A stretch of DNA of 63,936 nucleotides, the filler included, from Perkinsus olseni (lineage: Eukaryota), in NCBI GenBank assembly GCA_013115125.1. It is 3 parts of 3 records of this genome, joined end to end, with 100 filler letters (N's around TTAATTAATTAA, not from the genome) between each part and the next. Parts side by side here need not be neighbours in the genome. Positions count along the whole stretch, not along the records: positions 1 to 22,145 come from JABANN010000544.1; positions 22,246 to 44,382 come from JABANN010000545.1; positions 44,483 to 63,936 come from JABANN010000599.1. One strand, written 5' to 3'. Shown here piece after piece: positions 6,101-60,364 of this stretch. A program made the translations under genes and the position numbers. Under the pieces are notes generated by a model. The model worked only from the letters and a program-made list of their open reading frames with translations, was not told where the DNA came from and did not search any database. Each line of letters begins with the position of its first letter. Position 1 is the stretch's first letter.

Positions 6101-9100
6101 CTTTCTATTTTCAGGAGTCGTCGTGCCGTCCATTACTGATCTTGATCCCGACACTTGGGAAGAGCATCGCGGAGGAGGCGGCATGTCCAAGTGCTATCTG
6201 ACTTGGGATGCTGATTTCAAGTGGTTCACTTCGGATGATATGTAGTAATCTTGCTCTCTTGCATTTCCTCAACGCTAATGTATCAGGTATGTGCCGATCA
6301 TGTCCGGTGGCTTGCTTGCGATGTCTAAGAAGTGGTGGGATGAGACGGGGGGGTATGATGAGAATATGCTCGGTTGGGGCGGAGAGAATATCGATCAAAG
6401 TCTTCGGATATGGTTGTGTGGCGGAGAGATTGTAATAACGGGAAAGGGCGTCTACTGCGAAACTCGACTCCCCTGGATTTTCACGCGAAGTTTGGCAAAA
6501 CGGCGATGTAAAATGCGACATGTGTTTTTTACTAGTGTTTTTCGCACTGTGGGTGAACTTCCACCGGCGTCTGAGATTCTCAGTTTTGCTTTCGCTGCAG
6601 TTTTAGCCATTTTGTATTTTCGTACCTGAGCTCGGTGTTGGATCGTCACGAGATTAGTTACGAAAGTTTTGGTATGGTCAATTGTTTTTATTCATCCTCA
6701 GGTTAACGCGCAGGATTCCTATGTAGCGCACATGTGGAGGTTGTCCAGTCGGCCGAAGACAAGGGCTAAGTACACAGTACCGGGAGGAGCGGTCACTACC
6801 AACAGGTAATTTCGTGGCGCGTGACGGTTTGTTGATGACTTTTTTCACTGCGCCACGAAATTTGAGTGCATCAGGTACCGTGCTGCCATGGCGTGGTACG
6901 ATGAGTGGCTTGAGAAGCTCGAGACGTATCCGGAGTTCTCACAATTCGCGCCGGGCGGACTGCGGTACAAGGACCGTCCTGATATCAGTAAGATATCTTA
7001 TGCGCACAGCGAAGAGTATCTTATGTTGACCAGGCAATATCTTGGAGGTTAAGGAAAGGCTGAAGTGCAAGCCATTTGGGTGGTTCTTACGGAGGTAATT
7101 TCGTGGCGTGCGGAACTTTAATTGGCCCCTTCTGTTCGCGGCACGGGCTTTGTGCTACTAGCACAGAGCTAATGCCTAGCGTATCCGTCGATTAGGATCA
7201 TAACTCGGGTCCTAAGCGTGTATTAGAAAAGCATCGCAGACAATAGTGATTATAGCATTCCATGCGTGAGAGAGCGGCTAGTTCACAACATGGCGAGAGT
7301 TCCTCGTGGTGGAAAAAGGAGTAATTTTTCGGTGCAGTATCCGAAAACGGCGGGAAATTGTAGCTCTTGTGTTCCGAGCGAAGCAGTGATGGCGGAAATG
7401 ATAGGTATGTTTTCATTCTGAATCGATTTATCATCGTTCTCGCCGAAGCTGTTCAGTAAATAAATGCTTATGATAAATCAAAATTTCATCATCAGAAACT
7501 AATTAGCGACTATTGTTCGTAATGATAGCAATGAGGAAACGATTTATTCTTGCTGGTTGCCTTCAGATTTAAGAAGGTATATTTCGACGGTGGTCTGGTA
7601 CCCGATAAAGTATTCCACATAAAGGATGAGAGGACCAACATGTGCATTGAGCGCAAGGGAGGTGATAGCGGTTGGAAGCGCGAACTTTCTGTGGGCGAGA
7701 TAGAGTTTTTCTTGAGGGAAAAATTTTCGTGATTTTCAGATTTTGTGAAAATATTTCATCTGCTCGATGGTGGTCGGATCCCGGCCAGGTTGCAGCGGGT
7801 TGCTGGCAAGTTTTCGCCCTTTTTCGGTGGGAGCAAAATTACACTTCTCTTTTTTCTCTCATGCATTGACCGTCTGAGGTGAAAACTGGTTTTTGAGGTC
7901 TCTATGGGAGGATAGGAATGATCTGCGGGTCGTTGAAAGGAGTGTGGGAAGTTATCGTGGTCATCTCGGAGTTTGCCAGGCACTAAGGTAGTACTGAGGC
8001 CTTGTTCGGAGCAATCGCCTGGCCAGCTGTGGCATGGGGCGAATAGGGATACTCTTACTAACACATGTTGCTCGTCATTCCGGTAAGACCGAGGCACAGG
8101 TTCGATCCCGGCGAATGTTGTTTTTCGTTAGAAATTGGAACACTGATCAATGCCTAGCGATTGACTCTATTGGAGGCCAGTTATACACGGGAGTTTGCAG
8201 TACCTGGGGAGATTTCACCAGTCAATGGATTAAGCTGGATGAGGCTACGCATCAACTGTAAGAGGTCCCTGGTTCGAATCCTAGTAGAGATATTTTTCTG
8301 TATTTCTCAGACAAATTGCTCCTGGGGCTTATGCGAAGACCCGCAGTGGTTGCATTGGCGGGCAGCGGCCGAAGGGCACTGACGTGACGTTGGAGGATTG
8401 TGAGAATCCGAACTTCAGGCAAATCTTCAAGGTTGGATCGGGGCACTTCTTTGCTGTGCGGTCGATGGTGGTATCTTAGGTCGATGATAAGACAGGAGGG
8501 ATGTTGGAGGTTCAGAGTGGAGAGTGTCTTACTGCAGCGAATGGCAAATTCGAGTTGTCACCATGCGAGATTGATAGCGACACTGGAAAGGTACATTTTG
8601 TGGCAACTGAAAAAATCTTGGGCTGATGCGTGCAAGTCCTGATATCAATTTTCCCCCGTGATCAGGTTGGAGGAGAGCAGAAGTTCTCTCTTGTTGACTT
8701 CGATGGCAAGACTCGGATCGAGGCACGAGATCTTGGCGGCCAGACGCTTTGTGCTGATAGTGCCTCGGGAAGCCAGCTTCTATTGTATAGCTGCTACGAT
8801 GCTACTGTAAGTCGGCCGGTGAAGCATGGGTGGGCGTATCTTTCGACGGTTTCGCATCATTTGAATGCGGAGGCCTTCCTCTGAGATCTTTCCTCATCAT
8901 TGGAGTTTGACGGATTCATTAATCGCATTGCGCGGCATATAATTTCCGTGAAGTAGAAGCACGGAAGTAATCGGTATGAAACGATTGCATTTGCAAGGAA
9001 AACGCATGAGCAAGGATCGAATGAACGATGAAATGGCGTGATGAAATAGCCGCACATGTCATCCGTTGGAGAACTAGCAAGATGGAGTTTGGCGCTTGTT

Positions 9101-12657: not shown

Positions 12658-12758
12658 GTCCCTGATGTTCCATTATCGTCGCCGAAGAGTCGTCGTAATT
12701 TGAATAGGTTGCCGAGTGAAGTCCTTAACTTATCTCGAAATTTTCCTCTGTTTTAACA

Positions 12759-15700
12759 ATGACGACAACAACTATTACCTTCCTCAGTCCTTTAGTTCGG
12801 GTAGTGGGAGTTGCGTTTATTATACCAAGAGATTCCGGGAGTTGGAAAGACCTGTACGGAGGCGTCTACTGTCGTGAACCAAAAGGCCCCCGGTTCGAAC
12901 CCCGAGAGGTGCATTTTCATGCCTGTAATTTTGAGATGTTGCGGGTGTTTTGAGTATGACTAATCGCTCTCCGGTGGTGAACTCATCTGCCGAGCAGCTA
13001 GTGTTGTATCGTCATAAGCGGGCCTTGCAGAATCTACTTCGGAAGTGGCTGGAGAGACTCTCCGCGAAGAGTATTGTTAGTGGAGGGCGGCAGCCTCACG
13101 GGAGCGCTACCTTCCATAGAGGTGTGGCCCGGGTTCGATCCCTGGTGAGGGTATTTCCGTGCATTCCTAAGGTACAGGGCTGAAGAATAGTCAGCTGGAG
13201 CAGCTGTGGACCGCCCTTTTTGGTTACCATTGCGAGTCCATCAATGAGCTGCAGTTCTTGCATGCTGTCGAGACCAGCGACGGGTTCCCTGATGAATGGA
13301 CTTATCGGGAGAAGGTGGGAGCGAAGGCTCGGGGATGACCATCGGTTGTCGAGTAGAACATCTGATTGGCGACTTCGTGATGAGACCGACTCATTGAAAA
13401 CACAACGCCCGAGTTTCGCCGTTTTCTCGTCATGCGCCACTCAGTTGTTACTGCTGTCTAATCTGTCGTCTTTCGGAGAACTGTCCAGCTGGTCTCGTTG
13501 CCAGCGGTGCAAATGAGGCCTGGCTGACTTGATTCGATGGTCGAATTTTCACGAGACGGGCTGCCTGTGGACGTCCCGTTATTTCCATTTTTCAGGTGGA
13601 TCTTTACCGACTCCTTTGGTTCTCCTGTTGCCGTGGATCAGCACTGGATGGGCTCGGCACGATATTGACCTCCCTGGCATCCCCTAGCGAGCTGTCGGCC
13701 AAGTTGCGGCTCTCGAGGGAGTTCTGGCTGCAATGCGAGGTCCTCATGTTATTACCAGGTAGCGTGGGCTTCACTCAGTGGGGATCGTCGGAATTTCGTG
13801 GCGCGCGGTCAAATTTTGGGTACTGCCTTTAGTATAGATTGTATGCCGATGCTGAAAGTCAGAATTTCTCGTTGCGAAGCAGTTTCAAAATCGAGAGCTC
13901 CGCCTTCGGTGTTGTTCTGGTGGGGGGACGGACTGTTTGGCGACACGCCTTCAACACCGTCTTCTTATCGAAGATGGGGGCTTGTGATGACTGCGCGCTA
14001 CACCATTTCGCGATCAAATCAAATAAATTCGAGAAGCGGTGTAGAGGCCGTAACTTCTTAGCAACAGAGGCTTTGTGGCGAACATTTTGGTACAGGGTAG
14101 AACTTTACCCTTTTTGCTGAGTTGGACTGTGCGAAATTGAATATCGATTCAGTGCCGGAACCGAACCTGGGGTCTTTGTCTAGGACGCCTGGATGCCTGA
14201 CCGTTGTGCCATTTCAGCGAATAATCCGAAGTTTTGCCTCTCTCCGACGGTCTCCTGCGATGATGTGGACATGATCTGCACTGATGTTGCCCGAGCTGTG
14301 GCCTACCGACGGAACGATCTGTAGTGAGGGGATTGGTCAACTGTGCCGAGCGAATTCACCGGGCTGGACTCTTTGGGATCGCTCGGAAATGTCTTCCTTT
14401 TCCCGATTAAAGTCTTCGTATCAACTTTCTGCTGCTGTGAGGAAGAGTGTACTTTCCCTTGTTTTTTCCATGTGAATGTGATTGTAGCATAAACCACCTC
14501 TGGCAGAATCTTAGTCTCGGGATACTGTAGGAGGTTTTACTCGTGTGTCGAAGTTGCTCTCCCTATCGCTATAAATATGTCGTATCATTTGTCATTGTTC
14601 AATTCTCTGCTGTGCGGAAAAATATCTTTTGTTCGAATGGTTGTTACCCCCTGCCTCAAGGTCCATGTTGGACATAACGAGTAGCGAGTTGACATCAGCT
14701 GAAGAAGTCCAGCTGCTGCCCGGTCGGCCGTACAGGCTGGCTTTGATACGGCAGGCCGTTGGGAGGATCGTCGAGGCCTACTGTCAGGATACTCGCATAC
14801 CCATGACATGTGAGATTAGGGTATTTTCGTGGCGCGCGAAGTGGTTCTTCCGGTGCATCAGCGATAGTACCTCCACCTGCACCGTCTCAAGACTCTCGGA
14901 AGGGACAGGGCGGCTCTAGCATCAGCGGAACCACAGTGAGTGGGGAGGGGGGCTGCGAGGATTCCACCGCCGAACTGTGATGAACTAGTTTGACGAGAAT
15001 CAGCATCCGGTCGTCCATTTTTGGACAGTCTGGGTTGATGATACGTCGAAGTTCTTTCTCCGATTCTCACGAACTCGGCTTTTCTCTCGGGAGCCGTTCT
15101 TGTGGGCTGCTACTTCCGAATCGCTGGTATTTTTCGATCAGTCTACAGCCTTTGAAGGGCCGTGGAGGACGGATGCCCTTTGTGAAGCGTGTTTGATGTG
15201 GGATAAGAGGTAGGGTGGACTCGTAGACTTTTCCCACTTCCCGTGGAGTTATCAGTAGAATATCGATCGCTCGTTTCACGTTATCAGCCATCATGTTCAA
15301 CTGAAGCGTTTCTCATACCACAATTCGCGCAAATCGGGGGGGGGGGGCTCGGGGCTTTCGAGTTGCTACTGGAACCAGTCGTGTGGAGGCGCGGCAATGA
15401 GACACTTCGTGCTCTTTCTTATCGTCGGAGCGAAGCGCATGAGAGGTTTTCTCAGGAGAGTGGAATACGGTGTCTTGGCCAACGGAGACTTTCACACCAA
15501 CGCCCGCCGGCCATTGCCAGCATGGATGGTGAAGACTTTGGAGGAACGTCTTGCAAGTGGTAGTAATTCGTCGAGGAAATGCAAGTGTTCTAGATTGGGC
15601 AAGCGGCTCTGGCCTGTGCTTCAGGTGAACAATCGAGCGACTTGCCGGTTGGGAAGTCAGCAGCTCGGTAAGGTAGCCTAGGGTCGACCTTGGATACTTT

Positions 15701-22145: not shown

Positions 22146-22245
22146 NNNNNNNNNNNNNNNNNNNNNNNNNNNNNNNNNNNNNNNNNNNNTTAATTAATTA
22201 ANNNNNNNNNNNNNNNNNNNNNNNNNNNNNNNNNNNNNNNNNNNN
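22146..22245. other. Assembly gap containing an artificial TTAATTAATTAA all-frame stop linker
   Basis: N-run with TTAATTAATTAA at 22190-22201. The same structure occurs at 44383-44482. Confidence 0.95.
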
Positions 22246-22405: not shown

Positions 22406-24988
22406 ATGGTGTATACCTTTTCCTCTGATCAAGTGATGCATCAAGTGATGCATCAAGCGATAGTCACAGCCGTTACCTGTGCATTGGCCGGCATTCCAGC
22501 ATTATTCCCAATCCCTCACCGCTACATCCAGTTCTATTTAGTAATACTCTATTCGTTTGCTTGGCACTTATATCATCATTTTTCAGCTCGAACCTCCGAT
22601 CTGGGCCGGCTTCAACACCATCCTTGATTTCAAGGCCTCCTTGTTGTTCTTCCTGCGCGGTATCGTCGGCACCTGGCTGGCAACGGGCCTGGGCTGCCTC
22701 CTGCACTTGGTGGTATCTTCTATTTGTGCCGCCCTCGACGTTGGATACTTCCACATCTGGGCGATGGTTATCGCTCTTCCACTCACCTATTTCATAGCCC
22801 TCTCCCATCCTGACGCCGGCTGCAAACTCTCTGAAGTCATCAACTACGTCACCGCCATCATCTCTCTTTACGTCCCTATTGCCATTGAGATAACAGGGCA
22901 CCCCTACCTAGAGGGTCTGTGGAACGCCATTCTGGTGTCCTATGGTTTGACCTGTGGATTTCTCCCTGTTTTCATTCTCCACCTCTTGAACTGGTTGCCA
23001 ACACCAACTTCAAATCCCCTGCAAAAATTCAACTCGGCCACGGCCGATTATTTTGACGTCCTGAGCGCGTACGTCGTCAGCGGTGCGGAGAATCTTTACA
23101 CCATTGACAACCATCATGTCGACTATGACAGATCTCTAACGGCTGCCAGTGCTTACCTCAAGGACGATAGGCTCCGGAGTATCATCTGGCGGATGGCCAG
23201 TGCGCTTTATTCCCTGAGGAAGTCCATCACGGCTGGCACATACGACGAGCTCATCGTCGAGGGCCTGTGGAGACCGGTGTCTGCCAATTTACTCGAGTTA
23301 CGCTCGCAGAATCGAGCAGTGCTTCGGGTGGCTTCGGGGAGGGCTTCAGCGGCCGCAGGCGGGGTCCCGAATTTGATGGCGACAGCGGTAAAATGCAAAG
23401 AGAGTTTTAATGAGGCTTCCATGGCCATGCAGAAGTCTATCAAAATGGGGGAGATGAAGTCGCTGGACACTGAGGGTATCACGAGGTTTCAATTCGCTAT
23501 TGAATCTATCCTGAGGTATGCAGAGCTTGCTGAAGAGTATTCGTTGGCTATGGCCAAGTTGAGGAAGAGACAGTTGGCTGATGATGACGAGGAGGTACTT
23601 GGGGGGGATGTGCTCATCGGAAGGTCTACCGGGTTGAATAGCTCAGTGTGTCATTATGCACTACAGCGGCCACATTGTGCTTCACTAGTTGCACGATATT
23701 TTTATACTACATGTTATACAGCTAGACTATGATCTTTGTGATGAATAGTACATAGCGTCTACTGGCGCCCGTATCCGCGATACCGTTGGAGCCAGTTAGC
23801 GCCATCAATTCCCCATAGGCCTCGTCATTCAACATGACTGTGTCGATGGATCGTGTGCTTTCAGATACAGTGGTGGCAATCCCTCCGGCTATGGTGGGAG
23901 GAGTTTACGTCTTGGGCCAAGACATGGTGGTCCCGTCCCTTCTTCAAGGATGATGGTTCATCAACAGCCGAGCATCTTCTATTTCCCTTAAAGGCCTCTC
24001 TAGCGACGACCATTGCAATCATCATACTCTTCCCATGGGGCAAAGTCAACGCCAGCGTCGATCGCAAGTTCCTCTGGATCTACTTAGCATCGTCGTACTG
24101 TGTTCTGCCCGTTGCCGGAGCATGCCTGTTGAAGTTGGGCCGCCGACTGGTCGGTCTCACAGGCGCTCTCATCTACGGTCTCATCTGCGTCGAGGCGAAC
24201 CCCTTCAATCACGCGGCCTTCTTCCTCGAGCTCATCATTCTCGGTTTTATCGGCGGTTTCGTCAAGGCCACGGCCCTCAGCTATGCAGGCTCTGTCTTTA
24301 TCCTGACTTGGACGATCGTCGCCTTCACCCCTTCGGTGGCTCTCGGCGAACCTCAGGCGGACATCCTCTGGGGCCTCGGTTGGCGATGTGCTCTCAATCT
24401 CGTTGGTATGAGTATTGCCTTTATTTTCTCCTGCGTTTTCTTCCCCGTCTACGCCATCTCGAGGCTGCAGCGAGTCTCTGCCCTCGCCCTTGGGTGTGCG
24501 GCGAACAAGATTCAGGACGCGGTCCAACAGCTGGCCAACGTGGGCCTGGCCCTCGACGCCGAGCTAGTCTTGATCGATGAGAGGGAGGGCGTCGGTCGAG
24601 AGCTTTCGGCAATTTCCAACCGCCGGGCCTCGCTATTGGGCGATGCAGAAGCAGAAGTGTCAGTGTTTGGTAAACTGTTCATGAAGGGCTCTTGCACGAG
24701 GTGTTTCCAAGTTCAACCTTTCATCGGTCAAATTACGACTGCGGCGCTGAGCGCCTACGGGGCAACAACAGCATGCGCGTTGAAGGAGGGCACATCTCAC
24801 GATTTGTTGGTCGCTTTGGCCCCGCACCTCAGAGACCTCGGGATTGCCTTGGGACGATCTGGCGAGAGAATGTTCGCTGGCTTGGCGAACGGTGAAGATT
24901 CGCGACGTATCTGGTTGAACGACGACGTCCATGTGGAGATGCTGCGGTGCTTGGACGCCTTTGAGGAGACGAGACGATGTATGCTTGG

Positions 24989-25026
<38 letters not shown>

Positions 25027-25310
25027 GTGGTGGTGGTGCTGCTGCTGCTGGTGGTGGTGGTGAATCGACCTCGAGAGATGAGACCGAAGCCTTGAGTGAT
25101 GATAATGCCGCTGATGCTAGTAGCTTGTCTTATGCCCTTTACTCTCTTCACCTCTTTATAGAGGAATGGAACTCCATTGAAACATTCTTGTTCGGTGATG
25201 ATCATGATACAGTGAGAGAAGTTGAACTTCACACAAGAGCTGTACCTCAGCTGTCGTCTTCACCAACTTCGGTTGCAGACGTGGAGACTTGTGACGGTTT
25301 TCGCGTGTGA
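22406..25310 (+). CDS. Multi-pass membrane protein, ALMT/FUSC (aromatic acid exporter)-like, two TM+helical modules
   Basis: Two long ORFs (22557-23732, 23853-25310), each with about 5-6 hydrophobic helices followed by a helical soluble region. Motifs LRGIVGTWLA and RRLVGLTGALIYG, and WRCALNLVG...CVFFPVYA, resemble FUSC/ALMT modules. Confidence 0.6.
24988..25061 (+). repeat. (GCT)n/(GGT)n coding microsatellite (poly-Ala/poly-Gly)
   Basis: Runs of GCT and GGT in frame in the 23853-25310 ORF. Confidence 0.9.
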
Positions 25311-26087
25311 TTGGCGCATTGGCCGTCACACCGGAAGACGGGTTTGTTCAGAGGCGATCGGAAAATCTGATTGCCTGATTGATTTCGACACCCTTTGTCG
25401 GCTGCCAATCTTTTACGTGTTTCTTCGTTAACTATGAACTCTGTTGCGTAATTTAGTGGAGGATTGGAACTCTCTCACGAATCGCCACCGGTCGCCAACT
25501 CTTTGATGAAGTGCAACAGCAAGACAGGTCGGGTACTTATCAGCAGGCATAGATCGCGTTCGAGCCCCTTGAGATAGGTCCTGCTGTTGAGCAGCTCGGC
25601 AGTTGTTTGGTGCGGACGAAGTCTGTCATGCCGCAGGCCGAGAGTGAACGAGCTAAAATAGTCACTCTCTCCGTGGGAGCCCGGTGGAAACGAAGTTGAA
25701 AAACTCTCTTTACTCGCTTTTCCACCTCCGGGACAAAATAGGTCTAAAATTGAAATGAATACTCGCTGGACCTCGCCTTGGGAGCCAGTTCGTGTTCACC
25801 GTTAGTGCCACGGTTCTGAGGACGCTCTTGGGAGTCTTCTTGAGTCGGTTACTCAATACATTATCGGAGACTTCATCGTCTCTCTGATGGGATCTGATGG
25901 CATAGAACAGTCATTCTAGTGAACGGAAGCACTTCACACTGCGGACTTCCTTGTCGCTGTATGTCTTAATCGAAGATCTTTTGCCATGCCAGAACAAAAT
26001 ACGCTTAAACGACTACCGGACACAAGGCAGGGCTCGGTAACAGACAACATGATGGACAACGGCACGATCTAATGCTCAGATATTCTT

Positions 26088-27149: not shown

Positions 27150-27456
27150 AAGATATTCCGCTAAGGGGTTTGCTACTGACGCAATTTCTCGTGGGTTCTA
27201 CATCTTGTCGGCTTCAACGCTAAGGACGACGCAGTTTGACTAGCGCCGATGGAGGATACCTCAAGCGAGTATCATCCGTACCACTCCTTGCCCAAATCAC
27301 GAGCAAAGAACAGCGTGTCTCGTCCGTTGACCTCACTGCAGTTCATCCACCTTCATTACTCCGAAACAACAACACAGTTCGACTTAACCTCACGGACTTC
27401 CGTCGAGAGAGAAACATTTAACAGTATCACAGCAACTTATGCATTCGACTTTATTC

Positions 27457-28142: not shown

Positions 28143-28200
<58 letters not shown>

Positions 28201-31435: not shown

Positions 31436-35590
<4,155 letters not shown>

Positions 35591-41225: not shown

Positions 41226-41611
41226 CCAATACCTGTGATGCCGATTGTCGTTGCCTGTTGTTGATGTTAACAACAGAGATCAAGCTTTGTGTTGCTGCCA
41301 TTCTGTCCGGCGATTACCCTGCTGCCGCTCCGATGGCGACAGTCCCCTCGCCGCGTTCTCGCCGCTAAGATGTTAGGACGTTTCGTGGTGGCACGGTCGT
41401 GGCCGGTCGTGCAAGTACTTCCAATGCTGCTTGTCTTGGTAACTCTGAGGCAACCGTGCTACTAAGCTTGGTTTGCCGCTCTCGACTCTGAGTGACTGTC
41501 TCTGTGGTGCACGACCTTCACAGGAGTGGTATCCTATTGCCATCCGAGGTTATCATACTGGGACTCTTAAATGGGAAGATATCACTAGGATGAGAGATAT
41601 ACCCGTGTCTA

Positions 41612-42440
41612 CACCATTTCCAGACCTACTTAGTGAAACCCCAGAGGGATTTAATGAAGGCCAGAGCAAATCAGTAAATCGCCAAAGCAATTCAGTAAAG
41701 CTCAGGTTGAATTAGTAAAACCCCAAAGCAATTTAGTTTCATGAAAGACCAATTTAGTAGAGCCCAACAAAGTCACCAACAAGTACGGGAAAAACTCGCA
41801 ACCGGCAGTCTAAATAAAATACGCTCTCTGTACATATCGTAGGTTGGACATTCGAACCGAGGCTCCGACTAGCATGCCTTCCGTAGCTGAGCAACGTGGG
41901 TACAACGTTCGGGCGTGATTGAAGCATCGTATACAAAGTTGCACCGTACCAACCGCTTCAACCCCAGTTTGAAGCAACTTCCTCCAGTACGACAGGAGGT
42001 ACTCTGCCTTCATTCCGCCGCCTCTCCCGCCACTCATGGCCGGAGTCCCCAGGCCGGGAGGAAGGACGATCCGGATGCGTCTCGCGTGCTGACTAAATCG
42101 CTTTGGGGATTTACTATTTCGGTCTGGGCTTTATTAATTTGCTTTGGGGATTTACTATTTCGGTCTGGGCTTTATTAATTTGCTTTGGGGATTTACTATT
42201 TCGGTCTGGGCTTTTTNNNNNNNNNNNNNNNNNNNNNNNNNNNNNNNNNNNNNNNNNNNNNNNNNNNNNNNNNNNNNNNNNNNNNNNNNNNNNNNNNNNN
42301 NNNNNNNNNNNNTTATTAATTTGCTTTGGGGATTTACTATTTCGGTCTGGGATTTATTAATTTGCTTTGGGGATTTACTAACTTGGTCTGGGCTTTGTCA
42401 AATTGCTCTGGAGTTTTACTAAGTAGGTCTGGAAATGGTG
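41612..42440. mobile_element. Non-autonomous DNA transposon (foldback/MITE type) with long TIRs and a probable TA target duplication
   Basis: CACCATTTCCAGACCTACTTAGT at 41612 is the perfect 23-bp reverse complement of the sequence ending at 42440. Imperfect complementarity continues for more than 80 bp. TA lies on both sides (41610-11, 42441-42). No transposase ORF visible. Confidence 0.85.
42099..42410. repeat. 41-bp subterminal tandem repeat array (interrupted by gap 42217-42312)
   Basis: CTTTGGGGATTTACTATTTCGGTCTGGGCTTTATTAATTTG at 42101, 42142, 42183, 42324 and 42365. Degenerate inverted copies at about 41630-41770. Confidence 0.92.
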
Positions 42441-42784
42441 TAGATCAACGCATTCAGCAGAGTTCCGGTAGGTGTGGTATCGCGAGGAACACCCGGCCAG
42501 AGAAGCTCAGGGCCTTTGAGCACCATTTGTGTCCCGTGTTTTATATAGATGGGATCAACTCCTCGTTATGGGCTTGACTAATTGAAAACACAACCTTCGG
42601 CTTCTGCCATCTGGAATCCTGTCCGTCATCAACTTCAATCAACCAATTACTTCAGCATCGCCTTACCGCATTGCTTGTACGCTTGTAATGCTTGCTTGCA
42701 ATGCTTGTACACTCCACCAGCGGGCGCCTGCCTCGCCGCGTAAGTTGAACCTTTATGGTATGGCCCGGCTAATGTCGTGATCAG

Positions 42785-43260
42785 GGTCCGAAAAGGCCTA
42801 CAGCGTTGGCGGTCAGGAAGCAGCATGTTGAGGGGCAGGAGAGCGAAAGGGGCTACCCTTGTTCGGTCACTTGCCCATCGCCCAAGTTCGTTTACAGCCT
42901 CTCTCTTATTGACCCCACCGAGTCCAGGCTCTTTCGCATAGCATCAAAGTGGGTCGCCCTACTACTGTACAGACTGACTTGTTCTTGCAGCGGCTCTGTA
43001 TCTACCCGAAACGTCTCGGAGGTATTCGAGGCTGCTGCCTCTTCCGAGATCGACAACAGCAGCGGCCCCCCTTCTTGTCGTGATAAACTCCAATATTGGG
43101 TCCTCGAGTGGTGGCGAGGGAGTTGCCGTAACGTACCCAGTCGTCTGCTAGATGTGATAGAGTATGAAATGAATCGAGAGTACTGCCCTCAAGGAGAAGA
43201 GTCACATTGGCAGTGTGACCCGAGGAGCTTCTCCTTCCTACCATTCAAAGCGCTTGTTCG
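42785..43260 (+). pseudogene. Partial paralog of the 39219-41225 gene
   Basis: 43010-43247 is nearly identical to 40002-40239 and the GYPCSVTCP exon is shared. Downstream exons were not found. Confidence 0.5.
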
Positions 43261-44382
43261 GGTGAGTGCGAACCGCGGCCTCGAGTGGCAACGGACTGAC
43301 GAGTCGAGGCAGGGGATGCCGAACCTTCCGCAGGTGAGCACGGGCCTCCATCAACAGACAGGCTCATAGGAAGCGTTGATTCGTTTTCCTGAATTGGTGT
43401 TGTGACGATGTAGTTTAGCTGAGTGTGAAGCTGCTGAGAGGTTATGGCTGCTAGAGTAGCATAAAATTATAGGGGCGGCTGTCACTCCACTCTGCTCTAC
43501 ACAGTTCGTGGTGAACACAATCAGAGGACTTCAATTCAGATTTCCGCCGGGACTTCTGCGCCTCGCGGGGCTGGCAAGAGAAGGAGATCTCCGAAGAGAA
43601 AGATATCAAGGTTGGGTGGCAGCACGCTTTGGATTAAGAACGTGAGCATCGCTCCGCCGTAAGATGCGCCATTTTAGGTGTTCAGCCCTTCGTTACAACC
43701 CTGTGGGCGATGTGGAAGCAAGATCATCACGGTGACTCGAAGTGGGACCCTTGTCTCCTGCGGGCAACAACTCGGCAGAAGGGCGACTGCTATCTGGGAT
43801 TGCTCGCCGGGTCCTCCCGGGCTTACATATGATGTAAAAACTATGGGCAGACTGGAGAGAGGTGGGATGCGGTTCGGCAAAGGAATGGGGTGGTTCTGAG
43901 GAACTAATCGATAGGAAGACTTCAATAGGGGAACACAGTGAAAGTAGCTAGTGTGAGAACAGTCTGTTCTCAGACTGTCAAGGGTCTCACTGTCAACCGA
44001 TGTCAAGCATCAGTCGCCTTCTCATGTGTCTATCAGACACATAGGAGGCGGGACATCGAATTGGGTCCCTTCAATCGATGTCCAATTATAAGGATAATTG
44101 GTGTATCCGACTTCACTACAGTGCTCCAAAGTACTCCGTTAGACTATAGTCTAAAAACTTAATCTAGCCTCAACAACCACTGAGAGTTTGAACCTGATTT
44201 ATTTACTCGCCCTTCGTTACGACGATATGAACAGACTCTTCAAGAACTGTGACCGTTTCATGCTCGCAAACTGATATATGGGCGAGCGAAAATTTCACCG
44301 GGCGACACCAGTGTACCAAAATCGATATCTCTCTGCTATAACTAGATAAGCCAACTCGACTCCAGCTCCTTTGTATACCAGC

Positions 44383-44482
44383 NNNNNNNNNNNNNNNNNN
44401 NNNNNNNNNNNNNNNNNNNNNNNNNNTTAATTAATTAANNNNNNNNNNNNNNNNNNNNNNNNNNNNNNNNNNNNNNNNNNNN
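44383..44482. other. Assembly gap with TTAATTAATTAA linker
   Basis: N-run with the linker at 44427-44438. Confidence 0.95.
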
Positions 44483-46488: not shown

Positions 46489-49400
46489 ATGACTTCAACC
46501 ACCGACAGCAGCAAACCACAGGCGGTGGAGGTCACGAAGGGCAGACCACTTCAACTAGTGACTATTAAGATGGCCGATAATGAGGTAGAGAATAGCAGGT
46601 CACTCTTCCGTGTGGACTGTCTGAGCACCTTCGGGAGTGGTATGCTCAACAGATTCGATAATGATGTTGATTTTGGCGGGGTGTCATCTCCGCTGGTAGG
46701 TTCGTGTGAACGACGACGCCATGGACGAACTCACGAAGAATCTAGAAGCGACCGGTTGCGATAAGATATCAGTAGTATCCATCATGGGAGCTTATCGCAC
46801 TGGTAAAAGTTTCATGCTCGATCTGTTCCTGCGGTAAGTAGAGTGACCTCTGCATCCGACCATCATTGACGATCTATAAGGTACCTCCGTTACACTGATG
46901 GCAAGGAGGACACCTACTATCCCTTGGGTAAGTCTGCCCTCTCAGTACTGCCAGACTGATCGTGCATTTCTCAGGGGATCCTGCTGCGCTTAACAAGAGA
47001 AGGGGTAGCAGTTTCAATGCTGAATTCCAAGCACCAGAATGGCTGGTCGCTCAGGTAGTAGTAACAGGGCAGGTCGGTCTAGTCGGTTGGATTGTCTCGT
47101 TTAGGGTGATTGTCTTCAAGAAGGGCAGCAGGCTTCGGATTCGCATGGCTTCCATTGGCGGCCTGGCATGGACAAGTAGCGTACGTCTGACGGCGGGAGG
47201 GAGAGAGCTTTTATTATCAGGTGTACTGAGGGTATTTGGGTCTGGTCGATTCCGTTTGTGAGGCAATTGCATTCGGGGGAGAAGGTAGCCTTGGTCCTGA
47301 TGGACACTCAGGTAGGGGCGTGGGGTGGCAGTGTCCGCTGATATTGTCCGTTACACCGGGCGTAAAATTCTCATCCGGACGCCGTTGTTTTTGCAGGGAG
47401 CGTGGGACTCTAAGATGACGAAGGAACAATCAGCCACCGTGTTCGGTCTCACTGCTGTTCTGTCTAGCAAACAAATATATAATATATCCAAGCAGATTCA
47501 GGAGGATAAGGTAATCACCTGTCACAGTGTAATCGGGCACATTCTGAGTGTCAGGTCGAAAATCTTCATTTTTTCATGGAAGTGGCCTCGGCGGCATTAC
47601 GTGTGTCCGGAGATGAGAACGCCCAGGAAGGAAAGCCCTTCCAGTGCTTGGAGTAGTACGGGGGTTGTCCAGCTGGGTCGGGCTGATGGTGAGTATCTTT
47701 ATTTCCTGTGAGGTTCTTGGTTCGAGATTGGGCTAACTTTGATGATGATATGTCCATCAAGGATTGCGTAGCCCAGATGAAGGAGCATTTGGATCAGCAC
47801 ATGGGTGAGCTTTTCTCGCCGCCTGTCCCTGCTTCACTCGAGGCTCCGCATTCCGTTGTTGAATAGGCGGATTGTGGGAGATTTGCTCTTATCTATAACC
47901 AGCATATCGCGCCCGAGCATTCTCATACGGCATGCGTGATGAGAGATAATTTGGGAATGATCAGTCAACTCTGTTAGATGAGCACCGAGTGCGAGATGAT
48001 TCCACCGCAGTGGCGCTGAACAAAATGTTCGAGAGCGTCTCGTGCTTCTGTCTGCCACATCCTGGCCTGAAGATCCAGAAGAAGGGATGGTCGGGAAGGC
48101 TGGGTGATATTGATCCTGATTTCATAAGGTCTGTGCTGGGCTTCGAACCAGGGACCTGCAGGATGCGAGTACTGCTTAGGTTCCTCGATCTCTATGTTCG
48201 TTCGGTTTTCACTGACCCTCATCTCCACGCCAAGAGCATCCTCGGAAAAACCCTCTCGCCGCAAACCTTCGGTCCTGTTGTCAATGCCTTCGTAGAGGTA
48301 GTCGCCGTTGAATTTCGTGGCGCAGCGGTCATTTATCCCTCAGGCGTTTGCTAACGCCGTTCCTGCTGCTGCTACCTTCACCCAGGCCATGGCGCGCAGC
48401 AGTAATCTTTTGGGCAAGGAACAGGCCATCAATACTTATAAATCTGATATGGAGGCGGCTATGGGGTAATAAAGGACCGTTTGGGCACACTCATTGTTTG
48501 AGAGAAGTTTGACATTATACAACCGAACCGAGCCGTCATCACGAGCGATTATCTAATACAACCGCAACGAAACCGCTTGGTTCTGTAGGGTTCCGAAATT
48601 GCTGTTACTTACGGGTGGTTGTTCTTTTAGACCGAAGACTGGTAGTGGAATTAAGCCGGATCAGCTCGAGCGTGCTTCCATAAAGGCGAAGACTATGGCC
48701 TTGCAGAGCTTCTCTAAGCAGACACTCTTCGGCCCTGATGTAGGGGTAGAGCGGCTTCGTCTTAGATTATGGTTTGTTGGTAGGATGAGAGGGAAAAGAC
48801 CAAGGACGAGCTCGTGAAGGAAATCGATGTAAGGAGATCAACGCTCGCTGGTCGATTTTCGTACCAACTATCGCGGAACTTACTCGACGTTCGCTTAATA
48901 CGACGTGAAGCAGCACGTTGATAGTATCGGCATGGCGGAAGGGAGTGTGGTCTCGTAGCTATCATGGAGGTGGCGGAGCGTTTGTCTGCCTAGGGTCTCC
49001 TCGACTACTATAAGGATGAGAACCAGCGCCGTATGGACAAGTCACTAGCCGCCTTCGCTGGGGCTACAGTGTTGGTCATTGTACTCTATCTCATGGATAA
49101 GTTCTCTGACTTCGCCTGTGATTGGTAATGAGGCCTCTTCTCATCGATGCTGTGTCATCTACCGCTGTTACAGGTACTCTGACACTTGCGTGAGGTTTTC
49201 TAATATCCTCTTCTCGATCTACTTCACCATCATTGTCGTCATCGGCGTCAATGTATTCCTACTGTAAGACCAACCATTCTGTGCTTCGGGAGAATACTCT
49301 TCCTCAGGTACCGAGACCGTGGCCAGGTTGCGGCTGCGTCTGCCTTGATGGAGATGGTCAAAGAGTCGGTGAATCTTGGGCTAGGGGTACTCAGGGGCTC

Positions 49401-49527: not shown

Positions 49528-50321
49528 TTCCCGCGAGCGTCGTCAAGATTTGTTACCTCGACTTCTTTTTGTAGTACGCGGAGAAGGTCCGAGAGCATCC
49601 TGACAAACAGCACTTAGTGGCGGTGGCCCGAAGCTTCGCCAGCGACTGTTCAGCTAGCCTCAGACCGGTGTATCATAAGGTAGTTCCCAAGGTGTCCATC
49701 TTGGGTGTGACAAGTGTCAGTAGGTCATCGATGTCATACAGCCATCAGCGTTGCATCACACAGCAGATCTTCCTACTCTGAACGAAAACAAGGAGGGCTC
49801 CGGGATCGGTAGAAGGACTAGGGGGAAGGCGTTGAGATGACGGTCTTCATTCTCAGAAATGACTGAGGCGAAGCCAAGTGAGGTGGAGAAGACCCGAAGA
49901 CGTCACAGACGCTCGGATTGAGACACAGAATGTAGTAGTACTCTGTAGCTTGTGTCGTCGCGTTCAATATGCTGGTAATGACCACGTTGGGATATCCCCG
50001 TTGGACGGCTCTCCTCTGTTGAAAATTGGTTTTCGTCCATGTGCCACCTATCACTCCTGTTCTTGCTCAGGTTATTCAAAAGAGAACTGATGCACAACTA
50101 GTACTACTCATTTGATGATACTCTTGCAACAACATCAACACTAATCTATTTTTCGTTTGACCGCTCCGTCCTGGCGTTAAGTGGATCCAATGATGGAAGA
50201 TTCGATATGATGACTTATTTGTAAAAGGTCTTACCCGTTCTTTGAGCGAGGCATGACTAAGAATCCTCTAACACTGATCGCCAACGCACTCTGAGGGGCC
50301 AGCGTGTGAATTTTCCTATCA

Positions 50322-53300
50322 ATGCAGTGGCGCGTGTCTTCCTCGCGTGCCTTTCTCTGCCTGCTTCTCGATCCGTCATGCACAGGGTATTCTTCCACAT
50401 GTTTGGTTATGTCTAGCAATGAAGCGTATGCGGGCCACCTGCTGGATGACGGTCGCGGATTGTTCGTACTACGCCGTTTCGTGTGGAGTACGGTACTAGG
50501 TGGGCTGAGGCCTCCTCCGTGTGGCCGCTGGTGGGCTTTGGCTTCGGCTATACAGCTAGTAGTCTGTCTGGTACCGCTAGGGGGCCTGCTAGTCGCTCGA
50601 GGCCTGGCGAGCGGGGCCGGCGAGTGGGAGCTCGCTGCGATCTTCGGAGTATGGGGCGTGGTGAGCACTCTACTATCGATAGCCGTTGGGAAAATTGCTC
50701 GTAGTCGAAAGGTCCCGAGTTCTATCCCCGGCTCGCAGATCTTCTGGAATGACTACGATACCAATGAGGAGGTGAACACCCTTTCCGCGGCTGTCCGGTG
50801 GGGACTAGGGGTGGCCTCCTCCAAACCATCCCTATTCGTACGACCTCTAGTTGCTGGAATCAACTTCGGTTTGCTGGTCTGGGCTTCCAGCCGCGGGTAT
50901 GCTTACTTCCTCCTCTCAGCCATCGCCGTGGCAACTGTGGGCGGGTTCTCTCTTATAACGGGGTTGGCTCCTTTCGAGCTGGCCCCAATGGTGTCCCATA
51001 CAGTCCTAGACCCGACGCTCTCTCGTTCCCTCACCCTACTACCACTTTTGATAGCCGGCTGTGCTGCTATTAAGGCTTCCCATGAGGGAGTGGCGACCGC
51101 CATTTACTTGGTAGTCGCTGTTTGCCCGCTCCTGTGGGCAGTTGGCCTTCTTCCGAGGTTCGAGGATGCCTGCCTGTGGCTGGTTGAGTTCGTCTCATAT
51201 CACTTCTGTGGTACTACCAACCCTGTGCCCATAGTGCCTCTGACCATAGTCGCAGTGTTGGCGTTGGCCCTCCCCGAGACTCACTTGTTGCTCTACTCCA
51301 TCATTGGCGTGCTCGTTGGTCTTATCCCTCCATTCTTGCCTTGTCAGCTGAGGGCAGTCGTTCGACAGGTCGTAGTATGTAGTGCAGGGGTCGGCCTAGG
51401 ATTCGCTCTTCGCCAGGTCGAGAACTCCAGCCCGACCCGTTGGTGGATTGCCTTGAGCCTTGGCCTCGCTGAATGTGTTATTCTCCAGTTCAAAGTAGCA
51501 AGCCGGTTCTTGGTGGCTGCTTTCGCTCGGCTCTCATTGCTGGTCAGTCTGGTTTACCTTCTTGCCTACCATGAAGCCGTCAGTGAGTGGTATGTGACCT
51601 GGCTGTCTGTACGTCACTTCACTAGTGCTACGGCCGGAATGCGTCGGTTTCCCTTGGGCCTACCAGTGACAGTTGTAGCAGCATTCCATCTGGTGTGGTA
51701 CGATGATGAGGACCCGGAAGCGCTCCCACAGGCAGCGGTTTTGCTGATGGCTGCGGACTTTGTCGTGCAGAAAACCTTCTCCGTCACCAAGGGCTTTCAC
51801 TTCGGTTTGGCTCTCATGTATTATTCTTTCCGGGCTCCTAAACAACGGCATCGTGGAAGGGAAGTCTTCGCTGGTCTGTCGACGGTGTTGCTGCCGCTGT
51901 CCTGTTTCTTCTCTAATGACAACACCCCCTTGCCGTTGTTCACCGCTCCGCTTTTTGTCTTCCGACAATGGTTGCCAACGTCTTCTAATTTTTACAGGGG
52001 TGGTGACAAGATGATGACGACGGGACTGCAAGGTTCACTCTGTCGGGCTCTGATGGTCCACGGTGGTCTGGTGGAGGCCACTCGGCGGCTCTTCAGGGAC
52101 CCTGGGAATGACCTACTACTATTCCGAGCGCCGGAGGAGAGCCTGCTGTTCGTCGGAAGGGTATTGAAGAGGTGGTACGGCGGTTGTATCATCGAGTTCA
52201 GATTCTCTGAGCTCGCCGACCAGACTAGCTGCCACCAGACGGAGGCCCGAGCGGTGGATGCTGCCTTCGCGGGGGAACGACGGGTGTGGGCCATGCGACC
52301 GATAGACAGCAAGGTGGCAGTGGGACACTATGAGTACTCGAGGCTGAGCCTGGCTGGAGTCATCACCTCTGAGGAATGCCTACGAGCGATCTGGAAAAGA
52401 TTCGGTATGGTACTGTTGGTCATGGTGAAACGGCTGGAAGATACTCTTGAGGTCGAGGTGGAAGATATCCTGCACGAGTATGAAACGGCTGTGGGATACT
52501 TCCCTCACCAGTTAGCTGATTGCCTTGGGATCCTCACTACGCCTCCGGTTGATCGGCGAGTCTGTGATCGCCCCACTGGAGTCCGCGGAGCCTTCGAGCC
52601 TACCGAGGTTTCTGAGAGGAGTGTGGGGGAGGATGACGATGTCGACGCGCTTCTACAGGATGTGCTGCTCTATGCGACGAAGTAGGAGTTGGATTTGGTT
52701 TATTTATAGCTTTGTTCTGTTTGTCAGGTCGACCAGTAACGTTGCAGAAGGTGCTGAGAGCGCAGAAGGCCCTGACTGGGCTCCACTCCGCAGAGGGAAA
52801 GCCGGTATGGTCGCTCAAAAGGTTCGTTCAGTCTTGCATGGTTTTGCCCTCGAGGTCGCACGTGGTTGAGGCTCTTCTCGCAGAAGGCAAGTCTGGTGGA
52901 CCGTTTTGGGGCGGACCCGGCCCTCGGAGGGCCTGGGCTGATAGCACGAGCGTGGAAGGAGAGCGGCGACACCCTCGCGGGTGGTCTGTCCTCTGAGGCA
53001 TTTCGAAGAGGCTGTGCTCTCGGTGAGGCCTGACTGCTCCCATACTAGGACCCCTTGATTTGTATGGTCAGGGTTGGAGACCTTCGTCACGACTGGCCAA
53101 GATGACATATCCATTGAGAGCGCCATTGAGGTTGTTGATGATTGTACGACTTATTCAAGGTGGTATCACCATCATGTTGTGGGCCCTCACGATTGACTTC
53201 AGGTTCATAGGCGACGTTAGTGGAGCTGGGTGGGAAGAGGCGATGGCTAAGAAGGCACCCTCTTTGTTCTCGCTCGTTATTGAGCCCAGTGGTTCGATTG

Positions 53301-57600: not shown

Positions 57601-60364
57601 ATGCGAGAGGTCATCACGTGTCATCTCGGCCAAGCGGGATGTTCTGTGGGCCAGAAGGTCTGGGAGCTCTTCTGTGTTGAACATGGCATTGAACCAGACG
57701 GTAGAGCATGGGAGAGAGAACTCGTCCGCCTGTTCATCGAAGCCCTTTTTTTCCGAGTCTTTTCAGTGTGATCACGAGCTTCGATGAAAGGGGCTTCTAT
57801 CGGTTACGCTGTTTTTAACAAGCCGATTGGGCGCATGCCCCCTTCTGAGGGGCATGTTAAGTCGAAAACCTAGTGGGTGGGCTTCATGATCAGGAACGAT
57901 GCCGAGTGACGAGTCCGTCGGGTCTATGGAGGATCCCTTCAACACTTTCTTTCACGAGACTCCATCAGGGCAGCACGTCCCTCGAACCTTATTCATGGAC
58001 ACTGATCCAAGTAATAAAATGCTGTCAGGTGGGATCGAACCCGCGACTAGAGGATGCTCAGGTACTAAGCACGAGATACTTGGGCCGCGCTCCAAGTGGC
58101 GTGATCTGTATAATCCCGAGCAAGTGATGGGGTACAAGCAAGATTGCCGCAGTAACTTCTTCGAGGGCAGAACGCAGGCGATCGAGTAATACCAGGGTTG
58201 GTCGTCGCTTGACTCCGGGGGATTGAGATAAGGCACAATCTCTCAAGATCGAACTGCAAGCTGAGTTCGTGCTTAGTGCTGACTATCGGGGCAAAATGGC
58301 GGAGATCTACTTAAATGGGGACGATGTTTGCAGGTACCATATAGTGGACGAGATGATGGACAGGTTGCGGAAGGAGGCTGATAAATGCTCCAACCTGGCA
58401 GGATTCTTCGTGAGCACTCGCTGATACCCTAGCACACGTTGTTGAGCTCGCGACGTTTCAGACCTTTCGCTCTTTCGGTGGAGGGACGGGCTCGGGGATC
58501 GGCTGTGAGCTGCTGGAGGCTTTGAGGGAACAGTTCGAGAAAAAGGTAGTGACCTTACCGTAGGACTTGGGTTCGATTTTTCCCGGCCTGACCACTTTGG
58601 CTAAGATAGCTCAGTTGTGCATTGCAGGAAATCTCACAATGATTCTCACAGGTTATCCTAGAGCCCGTGTTGTACCCCAGTGCCGAATACAGCAGCTCAG
58701 CGGTTGAACCGTAGTACTTCCGAGAGGTGATCTCTGCAGGACTTGATCAGATACAACTGTCTCTTTGCTACTGCATATAGCAAGGCTGTCTGTGATCTCT
58801 CTCTCATGCTTGATAATCAAGCGGCCTATAAATTATGCCGTGATCAACTGGCAGTCAAAAACCCGGTATTTATCGAGAATCGGCTCTGATGGTGCATGGT
58901 GATCCTCTCAGACCTTCTATCATCTCAACCGGCTCATCTCCCAAGTCGTATCGGCTTGTACGACCTCCCTGCGCTTCGAATCCATGATCAACGCTAGTCT
59001 GCTGGAGATAGTCCATAACATAGTAGAGGCCCCTGTACGCCCGTCATCGGGCCTGTGTTGTATCTCAGGTCCCTACCCCGGTTTATAGGTATCCTATAGT
59101 ATCATTATCACCGGTGCGCCATGCATCGCGGCATAGGTAGTGCCAGTTGGTTGCCCATAAGAATCCTGATCTATTTCGTGGCGCAGTAGGCATGAATCCT
59201 TCTCCACCAAGGATATAGTTGTTGACCTTTTTGAGCCCAAGAACTTTCTTTGCGATGTTGGCTCGACGCTGCGGTTGAATCGCTATCTGAGTGTGTGCGT
59301 ACTGCTAAGGTGGGAAGAGAAGGTCGTGGGTTCAATCCCTTGTCACTGTATCTGAAGAGGTACTGATCCCCGTCACGACGGAGGTCCGGGCACTGTTGGC
59401 CCTCCTATGCAGGCGGTAGCATTCTCAATGGCTCGCCGTCTTCCTACCCGCCCTTGGTGTCTTCTCAGGTGGATGCCATGCAAGCGATCAACGGCCTATG
59501 TCATCCCAAAGCCAGCTATCGTGCAGCGCTGCGATTCCTACCGTGGATTGGTGAGGGGAGGCCTTACGCTGGGCGCGAGCCAGTTGTGGTTATGCTGACC
59601 GTCGGATCTCTTCGATGTTTGCTTCGAGCGACTCATCATGAAAATACGCCCCTGGCCACTCTTCTCGATGCCTCTATCCTCAGAGTCCGGATTCAAAGTC
59701 GGCGTTGTTGGCGTACCGCCCACCATACCTCCTGGTGGTGATGGTAAACCGTGTATGGCGCCTAGCGATCGTCAGGGGTGCCTCCTGGCTAACACTACTG
59801 CAGTCAGGACGATGTTCTTGAGACAATATAAGAAGTTTTTGCAGGTGAGGTTTAGTAGGGTATAGCCATCTATGATTCTGAGCGACGGAGCGGGTGACAG
59901 ACGGGCTAGGCTCTTTACTCGGACCCAGACTAGCTGAAGCGCCCTGGCGCTGATCCCATTGCCCTGAAGCGCTCGGCTGTTTTCTCTTTTGTAGTTATTC
60001 TATCATAAGTCGTATGTTTGGCAGTTCGTAGATGCCAACGGCGAGATGGATATGTTCTACGAGGCAAAGGAAATTGTGAGGACTGTAAGGCCGTAAGCGC
60101 ATATGGGCGCGTTGCATACCACTCCTTTCGTTAATTATCTGTCGTAGATCATAGATGACCACGAAGCGTTACTTCAGCAGTGCATGGAGAAGGAGAGCGA
60201 AACCAACGTTGTAGGGTACTCTGCGGGTTTATATCGTAAAGTCACTCCAGTTGGAGATGGTCGGTGCCACAATACATCCTCATGACGCCCATGCCGCCGC
60301 CGAGGATAATCCTACCCCGCTCGTGGATGAGGAGAACGATCAGAGAATTGCCCAGCGGGGTTGA
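57601..60364 (+). CDS. Divergent alpha-tubulin-like protein (about 14 exons)
   Basis: [107 protein letters not shown] at 60362-60364. Confidence 0.9.

Follow-up and report, generated by a model that had tools for sequence, protein, structure and literature searches.

Tails of tRNA genes as a possible source of very short spliceosomal introns in Perkinsus olseni

Introduction

The origin of new spliceosomal introns is a long-standing question, and the well-documented route is the insertion of transposon-type introners, described in Micromonas, Aureococcus, fungi and dinoflagellates including Amoebophrya. Here we report a tRNA-like module that recurs in very short introns of a 63,936-nucleotide (nt) stretch of the Perkinsus olseni genome (assembly GCA_013115125.1, one strand; this whole stretch is called the window). 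As with introners, introns of unrelated genes are alike over nearly their full length, both orientations occur, several families coexist in one genome, and the insertion of a sequence that makes a spliceable unit is the most economical origin. The window introns differ from described introners in being much shorter, at 44-63 nt, and in having diverged further (column identity averages 66% among 12 copies), and their source resembles the tail of a gene that RNA polymerase III (Pol III) transcribes, not a terminal-inverted-repeat, long-terminal-repeat (LTR), non-LTR, Helitron or Crypton element. Unlike at transposon-type introners, no target-site duplication, terminal inverted repeat or partner element was seen at the copies. 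The reading that fragments of tRNA genes created these introns in an introner-like manner has, in our judgement, about an even chance of being right.

Two other systems are close to the module. Short interspersed nuclear elements (SINEs) derived from tRNAs share with it a B-box-bearing, tRNA-related sequence, dispersed copies and degenerate stems. The module lacks their A-box half, tRNA-unrelated body, A-rich or repeat tail and target-site duplication, and its T-run follows directly after the discriminator, so the label of a tRNA-derived SINE, given to it in an earlier note on this DNA, does not fit. The extra TFIIIC (ETC) sites and chromosome-organising clamps of yeasts are isolated B-boxes without a full Pol III gene. 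Most known ETC sites are intergenic, and TFIIIC is not known to need either the GGTC or the 13-nt spacing to a T-run that we describe below. The B-box of the module differs from yeast ETC sites in lying inside spliced introns, with tRNA flanks and a terminator.

Within the genus, mobile DNA is also tied to tRNA genes by the Dada DNA transposons of P. marinus: according to the passages on them in PMC3706591, these elements of 4.7-11 kb insert in the A-box of tRNA genes with the target-site duplication TAGCTC, and no copies in introns are reported there. The module differs in that its 5′ edges lie near tRNA positions 32-42, not in the A-box. The same passages give hundreds of tRNA gene copies for P. 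marinus, five types of them running to over 500 copies, and passages in PMC3101222 place the majority of P. marinus introns below 100 bp. Amoebophrya has introners, and Perkinsus serves only as a comparison genome in the corresponding passages of PMC7789003.

Full-text literature searches returned no description of tRNA-derived introns or intron families in Perkinsus. The main texts of two introner surveys (PMC9860276, PMC12130899) mention neither Perkinsus nor tRNA nor SINE, and their supplementary species lists could bear on novelty; the main text of a 2024 review (PMC11282704) has no mention of SINEs and speaks of tRNA in general passages only, Perkinsus not having been searched for in it. 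One of these surveys states a BLAST cut-off of 1e-5 in its methods (PMC9860276), and with such a cut-off introns as short and diverged as those of the window would be missed.

Results

Anatomy of the module

All evidence on the module comes from its 12 copies in this one 64-kb window. Over 35-45 nt each copy runs through AGGTC, a T-arm/B-box (GGTTCGAWYCC), a further 13 nt and a T-run, and the 12 align without gaps when anchored on the T-loop (consensus GnAGGTCGCGGGTTCGATCCCnGGnnAnGGTATTTTT). The order of parts is variable loop AGGTC, 5′ strand of the T-stem, T-loop TTCGAWY, 3′ strand of the T-stem (5 nt), 3′ strand of the acceptor stem (7 nt) and discriminator. The T-arm reads GGTTCGANNCC; it is followed by the 12 nt of T-stem and acceptor, the discriminator and the T-run, with no CCA. 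G5 and C7 are invariant within the GGTC and the B-box is nearly so, the discriminator is A in 9 of the 12 copies, and a T-run of at least three Ts stands directly behind it in 9 (TTTT in seven, TTTC in two). The spacing between T-loop and T-run is exactly 13 nt in these 9 copies, not the roughly 10 nt of the earlier note, and equals the sum of T-stem (5), acceptor (7) and discriminator (1).

To judge from its sequence, this layout is that of a eukaryotic tRNA gene's 3′ end, Pol III terminator included, and the 12-copy alignment bears out the earlier proposal that AGGTC..TTCGANYC is a tRNA variable loop and T-arm. Given established tRNA biology, the missing CCA points to a gene or a primary transcript as the source, and not to a mature tRNA. 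The 5′ edge of the intron corresponds to about tRNA positions 32-42 in 9 of 11 copies, and its 3′ edge lies 7-25 nt beyond the discriminator in 10 of 11. Several strings mark subfamilies and go beyond the core common to all tRNAs: five copies have GGTCGYGGGTTCRATYCC, two each have AGGTCCCTGGTTCGAA and CAGGTTCGATCCCGGC and three have a CCCGGG-type stem, together with the acceptor/trailer strings AGGGTATTT (three copies) and GGTGCATTTT (two copies). ARAGORN at default settings found no tRNA gene in the window and at relaxed settings returned only noise with huge introns; Rfam, run on the window and on two small slices of it, gave no tRNA match at E ≤ 10 and none at any copy. The copies are fragments, not genes.

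We found seven exact matches to GGTTCGANYCC in the window against 0.25 expected, and none of 100 dinucleotide shuffles reached seven; with at most one mismatch the count is 19 against 8.2. A profile built from 11 anchored copies recovered the unseeded twelfth, at 34632-34675 (E = 0.011), and no other match better than E = 0.1. On leave-one-out scoring, 11 of the 12 copies reach 12.7-25.4 bits (E ≤ 0.011); the copy at 48129, with 9.6 bits (E about 0.1), is level with the best non-copy match, 50709-50735 (9.5 bits). The scores of the copies grade continuously into noise, and weaker copies may exist unseen. Copies that had kept their flanks and lost the B-box appeared only as chance-level candidates (57130, 45764 and 14654), with a profile that was circular for this purpose. 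The motif is present in all 12 intervals listed in the earlier note, weakly at 58561-58586 (E = 0.2-3.1), and the note is right to label 33486, 48129 and 58011 as antisense.

A weak tRNA-tail-like stretch at 50709-50743 (AAGGTCCCGAGTTCTATCCCCGGCTCGCAGA; B-box 9 of 11, E about 0.1) lies in frame inside a 791-codon intronless open reading frame (ORF), 50310-52685, and is either a chance match or an exonised copy.

Splicing of module-bearing introns

Short GT..AG introns of five genes house ten of the 12 copies; of the other two, one is in a probable intron and one in a stretch that is transcribed and not spliced, so the module does recur in short introns of unrelated genes as the earlier note had it. 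Seven of the ten introns carry the module in sense and three in antisense. Module and splice signals together leave only 1-20 nt in nine of them, the exception being an intron of 92 nt. Four are confirmed by RNA, three agree with exactly mapped orthologue models and three are supported by ORF restoration only. RNA evidence consists of contigs from four public runs and covers 24383-44382. Intron sets were taken solely from RNA contigs and from the exact mapping of orthologue proteins; a home-made gene finder was dropped, as a weak codon signal led it to over-chain or over-fragment genes.

The RNA-confirmed introns belong to a DEAH helicase gene (DHX15/Prp43-like) on the minus strand. RNA contigs skip 14 intervals of this gene, which end in CT..AC and are therefore minus-strand GT..AG introns, and their excision yields a single ORF of 734 codons. 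Among the skipped intervals are all four for which splicing had been proposed with the module. The 63-nt intron 32099-32161, skipped in four runs, carries a sense copy (E = 8e-07) and cleanly divides the OB_NTP_bind domain. In the 49-nt intron 33486-33534 the module lies on the plus strand, antisense to the gene, and has no T-run (E = 0.0005). The 92-nt intron 34242-34333 has a sense copy in its 3′ half (E = 3e-05); by eye, an anticodon-loop-like CTCATGA stands upstream of the module. Neither remnants of an A-box or D-arm nor a tRNA (Rfam, relaxed ARAGORN) were found in this intron. The 44-nt intron 34632-34675 holds the sense copy that the unseeded profile recovered, with the T-loop ATCGATT, and only 1 nt remains in it beyond the module and the splice signals.

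Exact protein mapping places introns at 48129-48179, 58011-58061, 58546-58651 and 59310-59357, all on the plus strand. The first, of 51 nt, lies in an atlastin/GBP-type GTPase gene, mapped with P0127, and carries in antisense the weakest accepted copy (E about 0.1). The other three lie in an alpha-tubulin-like gene. Intron 58011-58061 (51 nt) has an antisense copy (E = 0.00014), and the complement of the trailer behind the T-run forms its 5′ splice site, GTAAT. Intron 59310-59357 (48 nt) has a sense copy lacking the T-run (E = 0.0012); it had been proposed as an intron ending at 59358, and the intron stands with its mapped end one base earlier. The exon that follows it (GTDP..PPMQA) is conserved in orthologues. 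The 106-nt intron 58546-58651 contains the weak motif 58561-58586, possibly a decayed copy. Since 48129-48179 and 58011-58061 are both in frame and stop-free (51 nt), ORF logic cannot prove that they are spliced; for each of the two, the 17 residues expected from read-through are missing from six homologues.

At the site of the 58011 intron, a P. marinus tubulin-like model (P0121) has six extra residues (DITSSG), placed exactly there. This suggests that P. marinus may also have an intron at this site, with borders mis-set in the annotation.

For three plus-strand introns ORF restoration is the sole support. Two of them interrupt a GalNAc-transferase-like gene: 8083-8131 (49 nt), whose excision restores an ORF of 43 or more codons on either side, contains a sense copy of subfamily GGCRCAGGTTCGATCCCGGC with an exact B-box (leave-one-out E = 0.0064), and 8258-8310 (53 nt) a sense copy reading GTAAGAGGTCCCTGGTTCGAATCC..TATTTTT (E = 9e-06). 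The third, 13122-13171 (50 nt), lies in an unnamed gene and carries a sense copy with a fully paired T-stem (E = 1e-05). The same unnamed gene has the copy at 12884 (12882-12926, plus strand, E = 0.00065) in a candidate intron, 12874-12935 or 12874-12954, where it would also be in sense; the interval is ORF-compatible and its acceptor, GAG, is atypical. An orthologue search for this gene returned only two repetitive, unrelated proteins.

The copy at 30666-30710 (plus strand), which the earlier note does not list, lies outside introns in a transcribed, unspliced stretch. It is covered without gaps by RNA contigs of three runs (X9, X10, X14), that of X10 spanning 30097-31026, and falls within a putative minus-strand ORF of 150 codons reading ..DAGIEPAPF.., for which an exact look-up returned no protein. 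If 48129-48179 or 58011-58061 were retained, the protein would gain 17 residues with G(F/I)EP among them, and 30666-30710 reads GIEPA. With stop-free antisense introns and GIEPA in a putative ORF, tolerated exonisation seems possible.

Distribution across introns and exons

We compared compartments in the three fully mapped genes, which have 48 introns, leaving out the GalNAc-transferase-like and unnamed genes, and counted a module at a leave-one-out or profile E ≤ 0.1. It is present in 7 of 35 short introns (≤110 nt; 1,859 nt in total), in none of 13 long introns (2,871 nt) and nowhere in 5,665 nt of exons; per nucleotide, the difference between short and long introns is significant (binomial p = 0.0014). 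The B-box with at most one mismatch occurs in 6 of the 35 short introns against 0.25 in dinucleotide shuffles, none of 300 shuffles reaching six, and in none of the 13 long introns against 0.56 expected. The enrichment over exons and shuffled controls that the earlier note had named as its test is therefore present. The absence of the module from long introns and its near-complete filling of short ones argue that the fragment is the intron and not a passenger in it. The remaining 28 short introns are spliced without a module.

Conservation of sequence and of structure

Next we considered which feature of the module is conserved. In the T-stem 66.7% of cells pair, no better than in shuffles, with only about half pairing at the outer three pairs and no covariation; in the subfamily consensus stems four of five positions pair (by eye). 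For nine of the ten introns with a module, the RNA folds no better than its own shuffles, and six control introns behave likewise with one exception. These results argue against a tRNA-mimic RNA hairpin, an alternative raised in the earlier note, as the conserved feature.

By column identity the B-box stands at 0.95, columns 1-10 at 0.68, the 3′ strand of the T-stem with the acceptor at 0.53, the T-run at 0.77 and the trailer at 0.42. The contrast is in part ascertainment, since it was the B-box that led to the copies, and subfamilies that were different from the outset explain another part. The decay of one master copy cannot yield such a contrast with only about 100 introns in the window. 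What remains is either several source genes or selection on the B-box; the six extra residues of P. marinus at the 58011 site, if they do mark an intron, would be a hint in favour of age and constraint.

Further recurrent intron sequences

Among 38 short introns (≤115 nt) with trimmed splice ends, 18 of 703 pairs are more similar than 99.9% of a shuffled null, against 0.7 expected. They form three groups, namely the tRNA-like family, introns with a GGAGTGGTA core and introns with a TTTCGTGGCG core, and about 14 of the 38 introns fall in a recognisable family.

The GGAGTGGTA core has eight exact copies in the window against 0.48 expected. Four belong to mapped introns and occur in both orientations, and one falls in transcribed DNA that is not spliced. 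The introns are 32551-32603 (minus strand), 34484-34532, 46585-46699 and 60085-60147, and further copies stand at 27279, 30353, 41523 and 62905. Two sites of this family, at 27287 and 30361, share 24 nt bar one base: CGTGATTTGGG[G/C]AAGGAGTGGTAC.

The TTTCGTGGCG core also has eight exact copies, against 0.15 expected (6810-6819, 6851-6860, 7099-7108, 13794-13803, 14825-14834, 32434-32443, 48313-48322 and 59174-59183). Three of them are in mapped introns: 32416-32465 (minus strand), 48298-48343 and 59137-59189. The first of these, a helicase intron, shares a 26-nt identity with 6806-6831 in the GalNAc-transferase-like gene. An inverted pair about 40 nt apart, at 6810 and 6860, is the sole inverted pair and is confined to this family. 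The copies at 6806 and 7095 open a likely intron as GTAATTTCGTGGCG.

A linking copy at 14811-14834 had suggested that the TTTCGTGGCG family is the downstream continuation of the tRNA-like module. We rejected this: the trailers of the 12 module copies match the TTTCGTGGCG core in 2 of 12 cases, against a null of 18% from other T-run-anchored windows (p = 0.68).

A different motif, GGTATCTTAGGTCGA (9-mer ACCTAAGAT, 12 copies), occurs at 2661-2795, in tandem with a 42-nt period, and at 4153, 5597, 8470, 16611, 29722, 31296, 35779 and 62728. Several of its copies lie just beyond the ends of genes, the helicase gene being flanked by them on either side, and it may be a gene-boundary signal.

Genes and gaps of the window

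The gene names of the earlier note (helicase, atlastin, tubulin, GalNAc-T) agree with single-exon Pfam matches. The helicase exons match Helicase_C, HA2_N, HA2_C and OB_NTP_bind; those of the atlastin gene match GBP, and the P. olseni model P0127 maps exactly to the window over all 640 residues, with 19 introns. The tubulin-like gene, a divergent alpha-tubulin-like one, matches Tubulin and Tubulin_C; the P. olseni model P0122 maps residue for residue over 380 of its 401 residues, and together with P0123 defines 15 introns. The exact fit of both models bears out P. olseni, or an organism all but identical to it, as the source of the window. Matches in the GalNAc-transferase-like gene are Glycos_transf_2, Glyco_transf_7C and, weakly, Ricin_B (ricin B lectin).

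P0123 (814 aa, window 57601-62753) joins the tubulin-like gene to a downstream RRM gene, a fusion that is probably an annotation merge. The insert GTDP...PPMQA of the tubulin-like protein is lineage-specific and conserved in perkinsid homologues. For an intronless POT/PTR2 peptide-transporter ORF at 36823-38373 (minus strand), the best named relatives are those of P. chesapeaki, P. marinus and P. olseni; it is one of a large family of Perkinsus paralogues and has over 20 named matches at 54-87% identity. Its RNA contig depth is the highest of 24383-44382, bar the final bin, 43726-44382, beside a scaffold gap.

The N runs at 22146-22245, 42217-42312 and 44383-44482 are scaffold gaps; two bear the six-frame stop linker TTAATTAATTAA and the third sits within a 41-nt tandem repeat. 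The idea that they are masked tRNA genes was accordingly rejected. RNA contigs part from the window sequence at 44310-44312, beside a gap.

Discussion

The creation of these introns from fragments of tRNA genes, to which we give an even chance, would proceed as follows. Tail fragments from several source tRNA genes or pseudogenes would be inserted, or captured as DNA, in coding exons in either orientation. Each fragment would comprise about tRNA positions 33-42 to 73, its own T-run terminator and some 10-25 nt of downstream DNA, and the inserts would survive through precise spliceosomal removal. For a sense copy, a GT 3-21 nt upstream of AGGTC would serve as the donor, the T-run would take the place of the polypyrimidine tract and a YAG would follow within 7-25 nt. 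For an antisense copy, the GT would come from the complement of the trailer or acceptor end, and the CAG from the complement of the region 5′ of AGGTC. Sequence anatomy, splicing, enrichment and confinement to short introns are observed, and we infer insertion as the origin, the T-run's role as a splice signal and the direction of evolution. The earlier note spoke of introns "created or colonised" by a tRNA-derived element; a module that fills short introns and is missing from long ones favours creation and disfavours colonisation.

Several observations weigh against an origin by insertion. At the copies we found no target-site duplication, terminal repeat or transposase link (flanks by eye), and the exon flanks show the ordinary AG|GT-type overlaps of 0-5 nt also seen at module-free introns. 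The case is built on only 12 copies from one 64-kb window, with no near-identical young copy among them. No tRNA was called at any copy, which leaves motif and spacing as the basis for a tRNA origin. The extra residues of P. marinus at 58011 hint that this intron position predates the species split, and an old neutral insert should not keep a near-perfect B-box, yet the one at 58011 does. The fall in identity from B-box (0.95) to acceptor (0.53) and trailer (0.42) fits several sources or selection better than decay from a single master. Finally, only one clear copy lies outside introns, though non-intronic non-coding DNA is far more abundant.

Some of these points could reflect selection on the B-box, such that the intronic copies are putative intragenic TFIIIC sites of the ETC kind, acting at the DNA level on chromatin or the passage of Pol II. 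We regard this as unlikely, though it is compatible with insertion: the tRNA-like flanks would be remnants of the origin, to which a present function is added. The B-box consensus is present in the DNA, as ETC sites require (7 exact and 12 profile matches), and is conserved far above acceptor and trailer. Orientation is indifferent, as expected of a DNA site; T-stem pairing seems not to be kept, so that the conserved feature would be sequence and not RNA structure; the intron position at 58011 is possibly old and has a near-perfect B-box; and the GGAGTGGTA and TTTCGTGGCG cores likewise occur repeatedly in introns, between variable flanks, as is expected of binding sites. Against this, the B-box was the means of finding the copies, which makes its conservation partly ascertainment, and leave-one-out scores run continuously from 25 to 9.6 bits, down to the 9.5 bits of the best non-copy. 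The GGTC and the exact 13-nt spacing, which TFIIIC is not known to need, are conserved too, subfamily structure explains variable flanks without selection, and known ETC sites are mostly intergenic.

Other histories appear less probable still. Old introns might have been colonised or overwritten later by tRNA-derived sequence, through insertion or through gene conversion from many tRNA genes. This would suit the length of the module introns (44-63 nt), which is in the range of other short introns (median about 50), mosaic-looking copies such as that at 13122, which combines one subfamily's 5′ stem with another's AGGGTATTT tail, and an intron position at 58011 that may be common to P. marinus. 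We nevertheless think it quite improbable: long introns offer the larger target, yet they hold 0 copies in 2,871 nt against 7 in 1,859 nt of short introns, a 44-53 nt intron with a module of 34 or more nt has no space for an earlier functional intron, and gene conversion requires prior homology. Whole tRNA genes nested in introns might instead have decayed and been trimmed by deletion to a preferred length, the 3′ half being kept since its T-run serves splicing. The genus has very many tRNA genes, and the sequence of 34242-34333 reaches upstream to about the start of a whole tRNA, with its anticodon-loop-like CTCATGA. However, neither an A-box or D-arm remnant nor a tRNA was detected in that intron, only one of the ten introns is long enough, and two of three antisense copies have no useful T-run; this very doubtful history would cover the 92-nt case at best. 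Splicing signals or the base composition of short introns might have produced the match as a by-product, or it might be plain chance, and a T-run at the expected place of the polypyrimidine tract would fit. Such an account is hard to credit at all, given 6 observed B-boxes against 0.25 in intron dinucleotide shuffles, 28 of 35 short introns spliced without a module, and modules in both orientations.

A wider form of the idea that tRNA-gene fragments created these introns would have Pol III gene tails (half a tRNA plus terminator) seed a sizeable share of all introns of about 50 nt, their B-boxes come under selection as intragenic TFIIIC sites, and the other two intron families arise by the same process. 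We put this forward only tentatively, as a speculation more apt to be wrong than right by some distance.

About one in five of the very short introns is nearly all tRNA-gene tail, which suggests that pieces of tRNA genes repeatedly became introns. If this is true, the 3′ ends of tRNA genes are a new source of introns, in which a Pol III terminator doubles as the polypyrimidine tract, and intron families hide among introns of 45-60 nt, below what published surveys can detect. A functional B-box would tie TFIIIC to intron biology, and should the copies indeed be TFIIIC sites, intron gain would build Pol III promoter elements into the bodies of Pol II genes.

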